Sequence record: MN850647.1
DNA: 64,000 nt
Source of the DNA: Escherichia phage tootiki
Strand: one strand, 5' to 3'
Within the stretch, counting starts at the first letter, position 1. Each line of letters starts with the position of its first letter. The translations under genes and the position numbers were made by a program. Under the pieces are notes generated by a model. It did not search any database, was not told where the DNA came from, and was given only the letters and a program-made list of their open reading frames with translations. Positions 39,017 to 44,210 of the stretch are shown piece after piece.

Positions 39017-39092
39017 TGGAGAATCCGAAGGGACTCGAACCCTTATAAACCTGTTCTGCAGACAGGTACATATCCATTTCTGTCACGGATTC
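39017..39092 (-). tRNA. tRNA-Cys (anticodon GCA)
   Basis: Cloverleaf by eye: acceptor GAATCCG/CGGATTC, anticodon stem CCTGT/ACAGG, loop CTGCAGA, T-loop TTCGAGT, CCA encoded. Confidence 0.7.
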
Positions 39093-39096
39093 AAAT

Positions 39097-39189
39097 TGGA
39101 GGAAGATACCAGACTTGAACTGGTACACCGATTTCTCAGCTACTGGCAGTTTAGCAAACTGCTCCCTTACCTTTTAGGGTTAATCTTCC
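39097..39189 (-). tRNA. tRNA-Ser (anticodon GCT), long variable arm
   Basis: Acceptor GGAAGAT/ATCTTCC, anticodon loop TTGCTAA, 21-nt variable arm, T-arm ACCAG-TTCAAGT-CTGGT. Confidence 0.7.
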
Positions 39190-39190
39190 A

Positions 39191-39988
39191 TTATTTCTGT
39201 AATGCGTTCTTCATTTCTGGTGTTGCAATAGTGTCAATCACACCAGTTTTACAAGCATCGTCAAACCAGTCTGGTAAGATACCTGCTAAGAACCCATTGA
39301 TATTCGTTTTAAGGTACTCTGCAATAAGGGCAGCTTCTTCTTCAATCATCTGCACAACTTCATCTGCATAAGCTGTAATCTTTGAAATACCTTCATTAAT
39401 TTTACTGACAGCTTGGTTAGCTAAATCAGAAACAGTGTCAAGACCCTTATCAATAGCGTCTTGTAAGTCACTTAACACACCGTTAACACTGTCTAGTGTG
39501 CTGTTAATCATGTCAATAGCTTGCTGACCATACTCTGTAGCAACACCCATAATACCACTAAATGGTGTACAACCAACTTGTTCTCCTGCTGCACCCATAA
39601 CATTGGAGTATCCCTTTGCTACCTGCATACGTGATGAAAACTCATCAATAGACTTTTGACCGTAGTCTGTTAGGGTCTTAGTAGTCGCTGTAGTGCTTGT
39701 AAGGCTTGTTGTAAAGCTGTTTAGAAGGACTGTTGTAAGTCCAGCAGCAACAAGTTTCTCCTTCATTGTAGGGTCTGTTACAGAGCTAATAGAGCTTACA
39801 AGTGATGTAGAGGCAGCTACGGTTCCACCGAGAACTGCTGCACCAGTAATAAGTGGGTTAGAAAACCCTTTACCGGTTTTTAAGAGATTAAAAATCTCCT
39901 TACCTTGTTCTGTCATCTCTTTCATTAAGCACCTTTGAAATTGGTAGTCCAGTGGGATTTGAACCCTCTTCTCATGTTTTTCAGACAC
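39191..39988 (-). CDS. hypothetical protein (Ser/Thr-rich central region)
   Basis: 265-aa ORF embedded between tRNA genes. Confidence 0.55.
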   Translation of the reverse strand: MSEKHEKRVQIPLDYQFQRCLMKEMTEQGKEIFNLLKTGKGFSNPLITGAAVLGGTVAASTSLVSSISSVTDPTMKEKLVAAGLTTVLLNSFTTSLTSTTATTKTLTDYGQKSIDEFSSRMQVAKGYSNVMGAAGEQVGCTPFSGIMGVATEYGQQAIDMINSTLDSVNGVLSDLQDAIDKGLDTVSDLANQAVSKINEGISKITAYADEVVQMIEEEAALIAEYLKTNINGFLAGILPDWFDDACKTGVIDTIATPEMKNALQK

Positions 39989-40017
39989 GCGCTTTAACCA
40001 TATAAGCTACTTGGACT
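39942..40017 (-). tRNA. tRNA-Phe (anticodon GAA), boundaries uncertain
   Basis: Anticodon stem CGTGT/ACATG, loop CTGAAAA, T-loop TTCAAAT; acceptor pairing TAGTCCA/TGGACTA is offset from the canonical register. Confidence 0.5.
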
Positions 40018-40023
40018 ATAAAT

Positions 40024-40099
40024 TGGGGTGACCTACGGGATTTGAACCCGTATAGACCATGTTCACAGCATGGGTCATTACCATTTATGATAAGGCCAC
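40024..40099 (-). tRNA. tRNA-His (anticodon GTG)
   Basis: Acceptor GTGGCCT/AGGTCAC, anticodon stem CCATG/CATGG, loop CTGTGAA, T-arm ACGGG-TTCAAAT-CCCGT. Confidence 0.7.
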
Positions 40100-40130
40100 A
40101 TTTAAGGACTCTCGTAAGAACCCTTAGAAG

Positions 40131-40206
40131 TGGCAGCGGCATAAGGATTTGAACCTTAATAGGACAGCTTCAGAGACTGCTGCATTGCCAGTTATGCTAT
40201 ACCGCT
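40131..40206 (-). tRNA. tRNA-Gln (anticodon CTG)
   Basis: Acceptor AGCGGTA/TGCCGCT, D-arm GCAT-AACTGGCA-ATGC, loop CTCTGAA. Confidence 0.65.
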
Positions 40207-40211
40207 AAAAT

Positions 40212-40290
40212 TGGTACTCCATATCGGATTCGAACCGATACATAACACAGATTTTAAGTCTGGCCTCTCTGCCAATTGGAGTAATGGAGC
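40212..40290 (-). tRNA. tRNA-Leu-like (anticodon TAA), short variable region
   Basis: Leu-type D-loop AATTGGCAGAG, anticodon loop CTTAAAA, A73, but only about 7 nt between anticodon and T stems. Confidence 0.5.
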
Positions 40291-40292
40291 AT

Positions 40293-40368
40293 TGGCGGGG
40301 GATGTTGGAATTGAACCAACTTCTTCGATTTCAAAGACCGAGGTTTTAACCTTGTAAACTAATCCCCT
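40293..40368 (-). tRNA. tRNA-Gln (anticodon TTG)
   Basis: D stem GTTT/AAAC, anticodon stem TCGGT/ATCGA, loop CTTTGAA, T-arm GTTGG-TTCAATT-CCAAC. Confidence 0.6.
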
Positions 40369-40376
40369 TTAAATCT

Positions 40377-40934
40377 TTACTTTCTCAGTGGATGAATAAA
40401 GAATGCCAACATAACTCTTTCCCTTGAGAATGCTCTTTCTTCTGGGACAACACTTTTTAGTTTCCATCCAATATAAATTCTCCAGTAAAACTGTTTACCA
40501 AAGACTTTAATTGATGGGATAAAAGCGAATAACCCCCAAGCATTACTGTTCCACATTAGGAGATAGCCAGTCTGATTATCTTCAGGGTCAGAACTTACGT
40601 TGATATTACCTTTCCACTTAGTAACATCTTTTACATCTCTTCCTAATACATGGTAAGAGAAGTTATAAGCTTTGTTTCTCCAGAGCCATCCAACTCTCTG
40701 CATGTAGACACCCAGTTTACCAATCTTTCTAATCTTAGCCCATCTTTTGACGTGGCCTTCGTCACCATCAATCGGGTTGTCATAGGTCTCCATCCATCTG
40801 AATCCAAAAGGCAGATGTCCCTTCTTCTCACTGTAGAATGGAACTACGAAAGGTGCTAAGATGACTGCTAGGGTTGCTGCAAATGGTTCTAGTAAAGCTA
40901 GGAAAATCCATGAAGCATACTTCAAATATCTCAT
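40377..40934 (-). CDS. integral membrane protein
   Basis: 185-aa ORF with hydrophobic N-terminus, embedded in the tRNA array. Confidence 0.55.
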   Translation of the reverse strand: MRYLKYASWIFLALLEPFAATLAVILAPFVVPFYSEKKGHLPFGFRWMETYDNPIDGDEGHVKRWAKIRKIGKLGVYMQRVGWLWRNKAYNFSYHVLGRDVKDVTKWKGNINVSSDPEDNQTGYLLMWNSNAWGLFAFIPSIKVFGKQFYWRIYIGWKLKSVVPEERAFSRERVMLAFFIHPLRK

Positions 40935-40953
40935 CTAAATAGCCTCTTAAAAT

Positions 40954-41031
40954 TGGTGTTCCAAGACGGATTCGAACCGTCACTAATACAAGGTTTGAGC
41001 TTGCATCCTCTGCCAATTGGGATACTGGAAC
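40954..41031 (-). tRNA. tRNA-Leu-like (anticodon CAA), short variable region
   Basis: Acceptor GTTCCAG/TTGGAAC, D-loop AATTGGCAGAG, anticodon stem GCAAG/CTTGT, loop CTCAAAC, A73. Confidence 0.5.
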
Positions 41032-41032
41032 A

Positions 41033-43267: not shown

Positions 43268-43398
43268 CCAGACCGTTGTTTATCATCTTAAGTGCTACCA
43301 TTACACCAACTCGACCTCTGCCGAGTGAAGGAATCGAACCTTCGCCTTTTCTTTACCGAGAAATAGATTGTTTAAGTTTTGCTGTAAACGGTCTTCTG
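43268..43398 (-). ncRNA. structured tRNA-like spacer element (T-arm, closed acceptor-like hairpin, D-arm-like hairpin) bounded by CCAGACC / GGTCTTCTG inverted repeats
   Basis: Minus-sense: GAAGG-TTCGATT-CCTTC T-arm, then ACTCGGC-agag-GTCGAGT hairpin, then GTGT-AATGGTA-GCAC; no anticodon arm; flanks ACCGTT/AACGGT can pair. Confidence 0.4.
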
Positions 43399-43411
43399 TA
43401 AATTTGTTGAG

Positions 43412-43487
43412 CCAGACCAAGTTTTAAATTTTTCAAAATTGAATTGGCTTGAAAATATCATACATTCTTGCTGTATTTGGTCTTCTG
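43412..43487 (-). repeat. spacer element copy 2 (CCAGACC ... TTGCTGTAnnnGGTCTTCTG)
   Basis: Terminal inverted repeat AGACCAA/TTGGTCT and conserved 20-nt box at 43468-43487. Confidence 0.45.
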
Positions 43488-43548
43488 CTCCTTTAAAGAA
43501 TACTCGTAAGAACTCTTTAAGGGAGGGGCTAAATAGCCCTCTCAAAAT

Positions 43549-43625
43549 TGGCGGCTACGATGAGACTTGAACTCAAATCATCTCCCGTGACAGGGGAGTA
43601 TTTTCTCCAGTTAAACTACATAGCC
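43549..43625 (-). tRNA. tRNA-Asp (anticodon GTC)
   Basis: Acceptor GGCTATG/CGTAGCC, anticodon stem CTCCC/GGGAG, loop CTGTCAC. Confidence 0.65.
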
Positions 43626-43630
43626 TTTAT

Positions 43631-43718
43631 TGGTGTGCCGTGTAGGAGTCGAACCTACCGAGTCTCAATGACAAGGGATTTACAGTCCCCACCGCTACCA
43701 TCTACGGGATAACGACAC
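43631..43718 (-). tRNA. tRNA-Tyr (anticodon GTA), long variable arm
   Basis: Acceptor GTGTCGT/ACGGCAC, anticodon stem GGGGA/TCCCT, loop CTGTAAA, 15-nt variable arm, T-arm GTAGG-TTCGACT-CCTAC. Confidence 0.6.
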
Positions 43719-43726
43719 ATTTAATT

Positions 43727-43803
43727 TGGCGGTTAGTCAGGGATTCGAACCCTGTGCCATTCGCTTAACAGGCGACCGCACATACCTTATGTGCTTCCTA
43801 ACC
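43727..43803 (-). tRNA. tRNA-Asn (anticodon GTT)
   Basis: T-arm CAGGG-TTCGAAT-CCCTG, anticodon loop CTGTTAA. Confidence 0.6.
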
Positions 43804-43814
43804 TTAATACATTG

Positions 43815-43875
43815 CCAGACCGTGTTTTTTCTTTTATCCGCAAAAAAGTATTTTGTTGCTGAATACGGTCTTCTG
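43815..43875 (-). repeat. spacer element copy 3 (CCAGACC ... TTGCTGAATACGGTCTTCTG)
   Basis: Inverted repeat CAGACCGT/ACGGTCT and conserved box at 43856-43875. Confidence 0.45.
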
Positions 43876-43881
43876 CAAAAT

Positions 43882-43958
43882 TGGAGGCGGGTGCAGGAGT
43901 CGAACCTGCCGATACCATGCTAATGAGACATGTGAGACGCCCTTTCTCTATACCCGCA
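43882..43958 (-). tRNA. tRNA with anticodon CAT (Met, or Ile if lysidine-modified)
   Basis: T-arm GCAGG-TTCGACT-CCTGC, anticodon stem CATGT/GCATG, loop CTCATTA; first acceptor pair mismatched. Confidence 0.5.
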
Positions 43959-43969
43959 ATTCTCAATGA

Positions 43970-44041
43970 CCAGACCAAATATCTTCTTTGTCCGATTTCG
44001 TGTCAGATGAGTAGATTAAGTTTGCTGTAATTGGTCTTCTG
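43970..44041 (-). repeat. spacer element copy 4 (CCAGACC ... TTGCTGTAATTGGTCTTCTG)
   Basis: Inverted repeat GACCAA/TTGGTC and conserved box at 44022-44041. Confidence 0.45.
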
Positions 44042-44048
44042 TCAAAAC

Positions 44049-44126
44049 TGGCGTTCCAGAAGGGATTTGAACCCTCAGATATCCACTTTGAAAGAGTGGT
44101 GACTTTACCATTTTGTCTACTGGAAC
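44049..44126 (-). tRNA. tRNA-Glu (anticodon TTC)
   Basis: Acceptor GTTCCAG/CTGGAAC, anticodon stem CCACT/AGTGG, loop CTTTCAA. Confidence 0.65.
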
Positions 44127-44133
44127 ATTAATT

Positions 44134-44210
44134 TGGTCTCTGTTGGAGGACTTGAACCTCCGGCCTTACCGCCCCAAACGGAATGCTCTACCAAGCTGAG
44201 CTAAACAGAG
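44134..44210 (-). tRNA. tRNA-Pro (anticodon TGG)
   Basis: Acceptor CTCTGTT/AACAGAG, D-arm GCTC-AGCTTGGTA-GAGC, loop TTTGGGG, T-arm GGAGG-TTCAAGT-CCTCC. Confidence 0.65.

Follow-up and report, generated by a model that had tools for sequence, protein, structure and literature searches.

Does the long transfer RNA (tRNA) gene array of a phage provide a decoding set for all 20 amino acids, and are tRNAs all that it encodes? The question is raised by positions 39017-44210 of a stretch of 64,000 nucleotides (hereafter the window) from Escherichia phage tootiki (MN850647.1), where a preliminary description made from the sequence alone had counted about 26 tRNA or tRNA-like genes with anticodons for every amino acid. 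The array is real: ARAGORN identifies 24 tRNA genes, every one on the minus strand, and two atypical genes described below bring the number to the 26 that had been counted. We consider it very probable that this array of 24 canonical and two atypical tRNA genes of a Felix O1-like phage constitutes an island of translation and RNA quality control rather than a pure tRNA array. More tentatively, and with slightly less confidence than doubt, we propose that its gaps would encode two apparently undescribed RNA families, the first comprising Y-RNA-like partners of a Ro60-like protein and the second an RNA that resembles transfer-messenger RNA (tmRNA) without its acceptor. On comparative evidence only, these embedded RNAs, and not the ordinary tRNA array, appear to be the more interesting content of the locus.

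The tRNA array and its amino-acid coverage

A megablast search with 38600-44400 matches 315 phage records in which the same tRNAs are annotated, the best match being Escherichia phage bumzen (98.5% identity, 100% coverage), while Felix O1 matches at 95%. The bumzen and Felix O1 records have in common the gene order Ro60-like gene, tRNA cluster, small open reading frame (ORF), and large terminase. This degree of identity, and the gene order shared with annotated Felix O1-like genomes, show that the locus is a Felixounavirus tRNA cluster and the source phage a Felixounavirus (Ounavirinae), a Felix O1-like virulent myovirus. The array itself is already known: Felix O1-like phages are classic carriers of 22-26 tRNAs, near-identical genomes are present in GenBank, and the Felix O1 cluster was published in 2010 with 22 tRNAs detected by tRNAscan-SE, two of them flagged as pseudo, together with a codon-usage argument (Whichard et al. 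2010, PMC3185647). For the Mooglevirus Sf14, 26 tRNAs for 19 amino acids have been described, which are probably used late in infection (PMC12482277). The clusters of Felix O1 and other Felixounavirus, Suspvirus, and Mooglevirus phages contain the same genes in the same order between the same flanks, at 93-98.5% nucleotide identity and with interspersed HNH genes. The window differs from them in lacking tRNA-Arg(ACG), and it has one HNH gene against three in Felix O1. Descriptions in print of Felix O1 and Sf14 comprise tRNAs and ORFs only, without atypical genes or non-tRNA RNAs (PMC3185647, PMC12482277).

The anticodons of the 24 canonical genes agree exactly with the list drawn up earlier, every anticodon named there being present; that description identified neither the phage nor the non-tRNA RNAs of the gaps. 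Read along the minus strand, the genes are tRNA-Pro (TGG, 44134-44210, 58 bits in Rfam), tRNA-Glu (TTC, 44049-44126), tRNA-Met (CAT, 43882-43958), tRNA-Asn (GTT, 43727-43803), tRNA-Tyr (GTA, 43631-43718), tRNA-Asp (GTC, 43549-43625), tRNA-Lys (TTT, 43041-43116), a second CAT gene with a paired 1-72 position, which like the first may be tRNA-Met or tRNA-Ile with lysidine (42959-43035), tRNA-Ile (GAT, 42882-42956), tRNA-Ser (TGA, 41867-41956), tRNA-Leu (TAG, 41533-41610), tRNA-Lys (CTT, 41450-41525), tRNA-Ala (TGC, 41368-41443), tRNA-Gly (TCC, 41287-41361), tRNA-Thr (TGT, 41203-41279), tRNA-Val (TAC, 41033-41107), tRNA-Leu (CAA, 40954-41031), tRNA-Gln (TTG, 40293-40368), tRNA-Leu (TAA, 40212-40290), tRNA-Gln (CTG, 40131-40206), tRNA-His (GTG, 40024-40099), tRNA-Phe (GAA, 39942-40017), tRNA-Ser (GCT, 39097-39189), and tRNA-Cys (GCA, 39017-39092). 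The covariance model RF00005 of Rfam, applied at its gathering score, confirms 22 of these 24 ARAGORN genes with E-values of 1e-6 to 1e-11. The two that it leaves out are tRNA-Tyr, which has a long variable arm and matches only the tRNA-Sec model (29.6 bits), and the tRNA-Met at 43882-43958, in which position 1-72 is unpaired and residue 37 is U. In Felix O1, tRNA-Tyr was likewise labeled 'pseudo' by tRNAscan, and the homologue of this tRNA-Met obtained a Cove score of 28.9 (PMC3185647). RF00005 also gives one match at its gathering score beyond the ARAGORN set, at 42555-42633 (33.4 bits), which corresponds to the 'Arg TCT' candidate of the preliminary description; with it, the bacterial-type tRNA genes number 24 by ARAGORN and 22 plus this Arg-like element by RF00005. 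In a scan of the array for T-arm motifs, two further minus-strand T arms appear outside the ARAGORN genes, at 42563-42579 and 43327-43343.

The canonical genes serve 18 amino acids and leave Arg and Trp uncovered. Bumzen and Felix O1 each have 25 ARAGORN genes, including a tRNA-Arg(ACG) that lies in the relatives between the DUF7338 ORF and tRNA-Leu(CAA), directly 3' of the latter. This gene of bumzen, Felix O1, SUSP1, and Mordin is precisely deleted in the window (site 40935-40953, minus strand): the CCAATTT end of tRNA-Leu(CAA) runs into the sequence that usually follows tRNA-Arg, and the deleted segment is flanked by two CCAATTT tRNA 3' ends. Recombination between such repeated 3' ends would add and remove genes in the cluster, and would here have removed tRNA-Arg(ACG). 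As the canonical set contains neither Arg nor Trp and tRNA-Arg(ACG) is deleted, these two amino acids depend on the two atypical genes. The earlier claim that the anticodons cover all 20 amino acids thus stands for 18 of them; full coverage is only conditionally true and is weakened in this genome by the loss of tRNA-Arg(ACG).

What the two atypical genes are then becomes decisive. They may be charged and used on the ribosome, making the array a self-sufficient decoding set for all 20 amino acids, which we regard as somewhat unlikely. They may instead be decaying, functionless tRNA pseudogenes in an array that covers 18 amino acids, which we regard as improbable.

The Trp-like gene (41970-42052, minus strand) is missed by both ARAGORN and RF00005, and its sole Rfam match is to the tRNA-Sec model (21.3 bits), with nothing above threshold. 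It has a 7-bp acceptor stem, (A/G)1-U72, G5-C68, G73, an encoded CCA end, and a CCA anticodon with U33 and A37. The combination of A1-U72, G5-C68, G73, and the CCA anticodon corresponds to the identity set of E. coli TrpRS and speaks for decoding; the first pair is A1-U72 in Felix O1, Mordin, and SUSP1 and G1.U72 in the window. The remainder of the molecule lacks a canonical D arm, T arm, and 7-nucleotide anticodon loop. About 25 nucleotides separate the acceptor and anticodon stems; this D region is aberrant and includes the conserved motif CUAAGGCA. Only 3-4 pairs form the T stem, which is weakened in the window by a G-to-U change, and the anticodon loop comprises 9 nucleotides, or 7 if closed by a C.A mismatch. 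The weakened T stem and the G1.U72 pair of the window copy count against decoding. The anticodon stem-loop is AACGG-CCUCCAAAA-CCGUU in the window, with a GUAAG/CUUAC stem in Mordin and an AGAGU/AUUCU stem enclosing a normal 7-nucleotide loop, CUCCAAA, in SUSP1. The stem is therefore fully changed yet paired across three genera, with the CCA loop kept. A promoter-like site (42053-42082, minus strand), conserved in relatives, abuts the gene with its -10 box TATAGT, which speaks against decay.

The Arg-like gene (42552-42633, minus strand) is not called by ARAGORN and reads CGGGGCG-UAUCUCA-UCUGU-CUUCUAA-ACAGA-(23 nt)-GCGGG-UUCGAGU-CCUGC-CGCCUCG-ACCA. It possesses an acceptor stem, a T arm, a UCU anticodon in the loop CUUCUAA, A73, and an encoded CCA, together with a 23-nucleotide variable region; only 7 nucleotides replace the D arm, so that stem and loop are both missing. 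With them is missing A20 of the D arm, a major ArgRS identity element, and the Felixounavirus copies carry G3:U70, the identity pair that serves AlaRS as a determinant and normally directs alanylation. Both features argue against its use as tRNA-Arg. The homologues, by contrast, argue against decay: the loop CUUCUAA is invariant over four different Watson-Crick stems (UCUGU/ACAGA, GCGGU/ACCGC, GCUGU/ACAGC, and CCUGA/UCAGG), found in Felixounaviruses and, for CCUGA/UCAGG, in Justusliebigvirus outra, and hence in two phage subfamilies. The outra copy stands alone behind its own near-consensus promoter (TTGACA-17-TATAGT) and has G3-C70. The position of the Arg-like gene is occupied in SUSP1 and Mordin by a canonical tRNA-Arg(TCT), and AGA, the codon that it would read, is the commonest Arg codon of the phage and the rarest in E. 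coli; both points favor decoding. A suggestion that the UCU 'anticodon' is spurious, made on the grounds that a Kuttervirus RNA has a GAAA tetraloop there, was reversed, the true homologues sharing the invariant loop.

Non-canonical cloverleaves that standard tools miss or score low, and the visible gain and loss of tRNA genes within the cluster, are what decaying pseudogenes would display; the single-sequence folds of the two genes are also no more stable than those of shuffled sequences (z of -0.09 and -1.12), which counts against a full decoding role. The compensatory double changes that keep the anticodon stems paired around invariant loops, across genera and even subfamilies, are not expected from decay. 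Because of this conservation and covariation, both atypical genes appear to be functional, and we argue that they are conserved, selected tRNA-shaped RNAs and putative decoders. If this is confirmed, the D-armless UCU gene and the CCA gene with its odd D arm would be non-canonical phage decoders that standard annotation has missed, the former serving an Arg codon that is the commonest in the phage and the rarest in the host, yet carrying the alanine determinant G3:U70.

Stem-CAGCAA elements beside a Ro60-like gene

Immediately upstream of the array, 44376-45791 (minus strand) encodes a 471-residue protein with the Pfam domains DUF2828 and DUF7788. In its AlphaFold2 model (predicted local distance difference test of 86), the protein adopts the HEAT-repeat ring and vWA fold of Ro60/TROVE proteins, and the top 12 PDB matches found by Foldseek are all Ro60/TROVE chains, aligned over the full length with E-values of about 1e-8 and template modeling scores of 0.5-0.64. 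At the sequence level, the protein is connected with Ro60 neither by Pfam, which reports only DUF2828 and DUF7788, nor by a phmmer search of the PDB. Its homologues are encoded in 691 phage records, 'Ro-like' proteins of mycobacteriophages among them. The Ro60-like fold of the Bas63 homologue gp130 has been noted in the PhageMaP preprint, where some annotated tRNAs are speculated to be Y RNAs, and gp130 has recently been credited with countering the ppl defence system (PMC11482910).

Downstream of this gene, four paralogous elements on the same strand lie in gaps between the tRNA genes. E1 (43967-44044), E2 (43812-43878), and E3 (43409-43490) are short stem-bulge RNAs, of which E2 matches the Rfam Dicty_Class_I_RNA model (26.7 bits), and E4 (43265-43401) is a stem-bulge RNA that encloses a permuted tRNA-like domain. 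E1, for example, reads UGAC/AGA/AGACCAA-UUA-CAGCAA...UUGGUCU/G/GUCA. An AGA-versus-G internal loop, an upper AGACC../..GGUCU stem, and the motif NNN-CAGCAA are common to all four, and the 4-bp lower stems differ (UGAC/GUCA, UUGC/GCAA, GAGC/GCUC, and UUAC/GUAA). Among E2 orthologues, the lower stem undergoes a compensatory change from UUGC/GCAA to UUAC/GUAA. The interior of E4 is formed by a V hairpin, a T arm, a closed acceptor-like hairpin, and a D arm, and all 167 tested cells of its structure pair (100%). The acceptor-like hairpin covaries, from ACUCGGC/GUCGAGU in Felixounavirus to ACACG/CGUGU in SUSP1, and in Mordin reads ACCCUUC-GCCA-AACA-GAAGGGU with an encoded CCA. Elements of this type are present in Felixounavirus, Suspvirus, and Mooglevirus, and are absent from Kolesnikvirus arrays, where the Ro60-like gene is also missing at the syntenic position.

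The architecture can be summarized as a G-initiated 6-bp stem, NNN, CAGCAA, a variable interior or permuted tRNA-like domain, the 3' strand of the stem, and UG. We searched for it with a signature (G-N5 stem, N3-4, CAGCAA, 12-150 nucleotides, the complementary 6-mer, then U/A-G) in 80 IMG/VR loci that encode the Ro60-like protein, 1.15 Mb in total. The strand of the gene carries 111 signatures and the other strand 10, shuffled sequences giving 2-6, and the stems covary freely. Their density is 0.66 per kilobase within 600 nucleotides of the gene and 0.033 per kilobase beyond 2 kb, a 20-fold difference. Among the 42 loci without tRNA genes, 29 have a signature within those 600 nucleotides. Such RNAs accompany the gene in many uncultured phages as well as in those that infect Enterobacteria, Klebsiella, Listeria, and Mycobacterium. 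The Listeria phage LP-048 has three elements directly upstream of its Ro60-like gene, and a multi-omics study of a P100-like Listeria phage found highly abundant non-coding RNAs up to 2 kb upstream of the homologous gene, suggesting that they are Y RNAs (PMC12282133). A correspondence between the elements of LP-048, a related phage, and these abundant RNAs is no more than suggestive, as Rfam also places a ROOL RNA in that region of LP-048.

The bacterial counterpart would be the Rsr protein with its YrlA and YrlB RNAs. In both systems a gene for a protein of Ro60 fold is accompanied within 4 kb by small RNAs with a terminal stem on the same strand. The stem-loops of YrlA follow the order V, T, acceptor-like, and D within the terminal stem (Chen et al. 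2014, PMC4201824). E4, about 1 kb downstream of the Ro60-like gene and on its strand, has the same order, and the short elements, which contain no tRNA-like domain, resemble YrlB. Unlike Rsr, the phage protein is DUF2828/DUF7788 and not TROVE according to Pfam, and the elements are embedded in a tRNA array. E4 also differs from YrlA in its 5' motif, which is NNN-CAGCAA after the G-initiated 6-bp stem and not GNCGAAN0-1G, the proposed contact of Rsr; the latter is not found in E4, whose 5' region is AGAAGACCGUUUACAGCAA. The YrlA model (RF02553) does not match E4 of the window or of Mordin, even at E<=10. In other phages, elements with tRNA-like modules do match it: two in Klebsiella phage KP13-26 (40.1 and 32.5 bits, E of 2.5e-7 and 4e-5), one in mycobacteriophage MiniLon (37.7 bits), and two in locus L026 (38.0 and 34.8 bits), with E-values from 2.5e-7 to 8e-4 and scores all below the gathering score of 69. 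In MiniLon and KP13-26 (E from 2.5e-7 to 1e-4), these RNAs come after the gene for the homologous protein. Felix O1-like phages may be among the 22 phages listed by Chen et al. 2014.

The location of E1-E4 between tRNA genes, and the failure of E4 to match the YrlA model, would also be accounted for if the elements were not partners of the Ro60-like protein but signals for tRNA-precursor processing or termination, or selfish repeats. This seems improbable to us given that signatures favor the strand of the gene and peak in density close to it in many phages, that most of the tRNA-less loci retain them, that the Kolesnikvirus arrays lack both elements and gene, that versions with tRNA-like modules match the YrlA model, and that abundant non-coding RNAs lie beside the homologous gene in the P100-like phage, where LP-048 has three elements. 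The stem-CAGCAA RNAs would then be candidate cognate partners, Y-RNA-like in kind, of the DUF2828-type phage homologue of Ro60. If this is confirmed, a simple signature of sequence and structure would single out candidate Y RNAs throughout the large DUF2828 family of Ro60-like phage proteins.

A second resemblance concerns the dictyostelid Class I RNAs (RF01414), which are described as having an AAG start, a 6-bp stem, the motif CCUUACAGCAA, and a CUGU end (Kjellin et al. 2021, PMC7919456). Of the non-tRNA models in Rfam, this one gives the best match to short elements from three unrelated phage lineages. The scores lie between 23.5 and 30.8 bits and fall short of the gathering score of 41.5, both for E2 (26.7 bits) and for its counterparts in other phages (23.5-30.8 bits). 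Compared with the published description (PMC7919456), E1-E3 show the complete Class I architecture, with AAG, a 6-bp stem, ..ACAGCAA, CUG(U), and a length of about 60 nucleotides. As in the Class I RNAs, the AAG start and 6-bp terminal stem are followed by a variable A/U-rich interior and the CUG(U) end, in multiple copies; a UUACAGCAA-type motif directly after the 5' stem strand and a length of 50-70 nucleotides are also shared. Class I RNAs have been reported as unique to Dictyostelia, where they bind the RRM protein Rnp1A (PMC7919456), and the resemblance may be convergent or due to chance.

Other observations concern these elements and their loci. The 95-nucleotide gap between tRNA-Thr and tRNA-Val (41108-41202, minus strand), conserved in length, can form a hairpin of high stability (-30.7 kcal/mol, z = -3.74) containing GAAGACCGUAAC, which resembles the stems of the E elements and is possibly another small RNA. 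At 41611-41705 (minus strand), after a terminator-like hairpin described below, a long hairpin AGAGGGCUUCUAAGG-UUAUUACAGCUUG...CUUAGAAGUUCUCU has a UUACAGC motif and resembles a degenerate fifth stem-CAGCAA element. In the Ro60-like loci of other phages, every tRNA gene is on the strand of the Ro60-like gene. In LP-048 (L094, 1927-2478 and 6310-7521), the ROOL RNA (90 bits) is accompanied by an RtcB ligase gene.

A tmRNA-like RNA without an acceptor

The second candidate family is represented by an RNA at 42634-42831 (minus strand), which was recognized by sub-threshold matches to tmRNA models, homologues, and covariation. A sigma-70-like promoter, TTGACA-17-TATAGT (42838-42866, minus strand; 11 of 12 matches), precedes it and is conserved in SUSP1 and Mordin. 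The RNA that follows reads AGUUUUCGU...AUAAAU-GCA AAC GAC AAU GUU UUU CUG GCA GUA GCU UGA. Its parts are the 5' AGUUUUCGU motif, a helix, AUAAAU, a tag frame, a hairpin that holds the stop codon, a pseudoknot, and hairpins. The tag frame, GCA to UGA (42756-42788, minus strand), encodes ANDNVFLAVA*, the same tag that ARAGORN gives in Mordin.

By blastn, the element is found in 594 phage records, in almost all of which it is unannotated, and in at least eight genera; its carriers include the Ounavirinae (with Kolesnikvirus), Ackermannviridae, Swiduovirus, Jedunavirus, and Ithacavirus. Other tags are ANDNAFLAVA, ANDAQFLAVA, ANDNTFLAVA, ANEEMYLAVA, ANDTEFLAVA, and ANDDVVLMAA. In pairwise comparisons, synonymous and non-synonymous codon differences number 46 and 81 in the tag frame, against 1 and 122 and 8 and 112 in the other frames. 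On an alignment of eight genera, the stop-codon hairpin, the next hairpin, and the pseudoknot are supported, with 96% of cells pairing; six pairs change on both sides, and none of 500 shuffles reaches the covariation score. The pseudoknot pairs as CCAA/UUGG, CCGA/UCGG, or CCAG/CUGG.

These features recall tmRNA (SsrA; RF00023, RF04321). AUAAAU-GCA-AAC-GAC corresponds to its resume region, the tag frame is conserved without a start codon, the stop codon lies in a hairpin followed by a pseudoknot, and the 10-codon tag ends in LAVA and a stop where that of E. coli is ANDENYALAA*. Rfam tmRNA models nevertheless align the tag region at 15.4 and 31.9 bits, short of the gathering score of 47, and ARAGORN calls no tmRNA in the window. 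Unlike tmRNA, the transcript begins a few nucleotides before the D-loop-like AGUUUUCGU motif. It lacks an alanine-accepting tRNA-like domain built from its own ends, no complementary 5' strand being present upstream of the tag. Neither an acceptor stem nor a T arm belongs to this RNA, which extends to the following tRNA gene in the Ounavirinae (in the window, to the 5' end of the adjacent tRNA-like gene) and to a terminator in SP154. The RNA might work as a split tmRNA with a separate acceptor RNA, or might interfere with trans-translation of the host. If confirmed, so widespread an acceptor-less tmRNA-like RNA would call for an explanation of how phages exploit or subvert ribosome rescue.

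Several candidates for the missing part, or for other readings of the region, were rejected or lost support. The element at 42555-42633 had initially been considered as the tRNA-like domain on account of G3:U70, A73, the CCA end, and the missing D stem; this is weakened by the stand-alone, promoter-bearing copy with G3-C70 in outra and by the canonical tRNA-Arg(TCT) that SUSP1 and Mordin have there, and may yet hold in Felixounavirus. The permuted tmRNA that ARAGORN reports in Mordin is chimeric, joining the T arm and acceptor of E4, part of tRNA-Lys, and a distant tag. A 9-codon ORF with an AUG start overlaps the tag (MQTTMFFWQ), but substitutions fall at third positions of the tag frame and not of this one. 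Directly 3' of E4 lies a long hairpin of 146 nucleotides (43117-43262, minus strand; fold z = -4.07) in which no reading frame is conserved; GCAGUAGCUU..GGCUAA occurs both there and in the tag region of the tmRNA-like RNA. E4 and this hairpin were considered as a decayed permuted tmRNA, and this was discarded because the 'second tag' frame is not conserved, with an indel between the window and Mordin.

Elsewhere, bona fide tmRNA genes with tags ending in ELAVA are often present in Ro60-like loci (L023, L026, L037, L039, L041, L053, and L058). In the Kuttervirus SenASZ3 (L083, minus strand, about 1150-1950), the tmRNA-like RNA is flanked by several unannotated tRNA-like fragments with T arms, and ARAGORN reports no genes in that interval.

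Expression, role, and other features of the array

The tRNA genes are co-oriented and 2-10 nucleotides apart, and most encode their own CCA followed by AUU, a tight spacing and type of end that fit polycistronic precursors processed by host enzymes. The sigma-70 RNA polymerase of the host would transcribe the array from a few promoters as multi-tRNA precursors, which host RNase P and 3' processing enzymes would then cut. Two sigma-70-like promoters precede tRNA-Pro, the start of the array (44357-44329 and 44266-44237, minus strand; 10 of 12 matches each). A terminator-like hairpin, AAGACC-UUUUU-AGGUCUU-UUU, was read from the sequence between tRNA-Ser(TGA) and tRNA-Leu(TAG) (41690-41710, minus strand); the promoter and terminator scan does not list it, as it has too few G-C pairs.

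In the clusters of T4 and T5-like phages, the processing of which is attributed to host RNase P, tRNA genes with an encoded CCA likewise stand in tandem and in one orientation, mixed with homing endonucleases and small stable RNAs. The window shares with them tandem co-oriented genes with encoded CCA among homing endonucleases and small RNAs; it differs in its unrelated phage lineage, gene set, and associated Ro60-like gene.

The anticodons, dominated by UNN and GNN, would match A/U-ending codons that a phage of 39% G+C favors and that E. coli decodes poorly, with AGA as the extreme. In 56 ORFs of the window, AGA makes up 44% of Arg codons, and a cognate phage tRNA exists for each of CCA and CAA (50% of Pro and of Gln codons, respectively), GCA (41% of Ala), ACA (39% of Thr), GTA (33% of Val), and TTA (29% of Leu). 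The phage tRNAs would accordingly be expected to sustain phage translation, mainly of late genes, when host tRNAs are limiting, degraded, or attacked.

Several observations weigh against so simple a picture of an expressed, codon-matched array. The comparison of codon usage with the anticodon set, proposed in the preliminary description, bears out a match for A-ending codons and fails for GGT (67%), GCT (47%), GTT (46%), TCT (35%), and CGT (32%), all heavily used without an exact cognate. GGA, moreover, has a phage tRNA yet accounts for only 14% of the codons for Gly, so that the match to codon usage is imperfect. Taken together, the sites of the promoter scan do not exceed chance, with 19 found and 17.3 expected in shuffles, and for this reason only near-consensus sites were used. 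In phage Bas63, most tRNAs are non-essential in laboratory strains, and its tRNAs were dispensable in four laboratory hosts (PhageMaP, PMC11482910), so that any benefit must be conditional.

These points leave room for the possibility, which we find open to doubt though worth weighing, that the tRNAs mainly replace host tRNAs destroyed in infection, by turnover or by anticodon nucleases, rather than matching codons, the odd shapes of some tRNA genes then being escape variants. Imperfect codon matching is in line with it. The Sf14 study favors an 'all-destructive infection' model with use for late genes but argued specifically against escape from anticodon nucleases (PMC12482277). Evasion of tRNA nucleases is cited as a possible role by the PhageMaP authors, and the cluster adjoins the Ro60-like gene reported to counter ppl (PMC11482910). 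For these particular variants, no nuclease target is known. We infer that the tRNAs of the array are expressed, processed, charged, and of benefit to the phage.

The preliminary description had the array interrupted by an HNH endonuclease, a membrane protein, and a 265-residue protein, and all three ORFs are real. The first (42190-42537, minus strand; 115 residues from ATG 42537) is a homing endonuclease with a weak Pfam HNH match (E 0.0045), and is annotated as an HNH endonuclease in bumzen and Felix O1. The second (40377-40934, minus strand) encodes a 185-residue DUF7338 protein with a hydrophobic N-terminus (PF24027, E 2e-61). The third, a DUF7217 protein (39191-39988, minus strand; PF23854, E 5e-87), has 265 residues from a GTG that overlaps tRNA-Phe, and is probably rather a 244-residue protein starting at ATG 39925; its counterpart, ORF49 of Felix O1, has 735 nucleotides. 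Free-standing HNH genes and small conserved ORFs of this kind would have been inserted between tRNA genes.

Minor features complete the inventory. The 3' end of 16S ribosomal RNA has an extended and almost perfect complement, UAAGGAGGUGGUC, at 42139-42151 (minus strand); this sequence is followed in the window by a 7-codon ORF only, and is kept in Kolesnikvirus (L088) with no conserved ORF behind it. Small hairpins with the loop motif UUCUUACGAG / UUUCUAAGAGAG are repeated between RNA genes (40108-40135, 42641-42675, and 43500-43545, minus strand) and may be processing signals. The Felix O1 paper states that introns are absent (PMC3185647). Far from the array, within 3851-6848, Rfam detects a group I intron at 5961-6244 (plus strand; 61.3 bits, gathering score 50), which splits a family-A DNA polymerase gene into ORFs of 737 and 184 residues, followed at 6830-7333 by a homing-endonuclease-like ORF.

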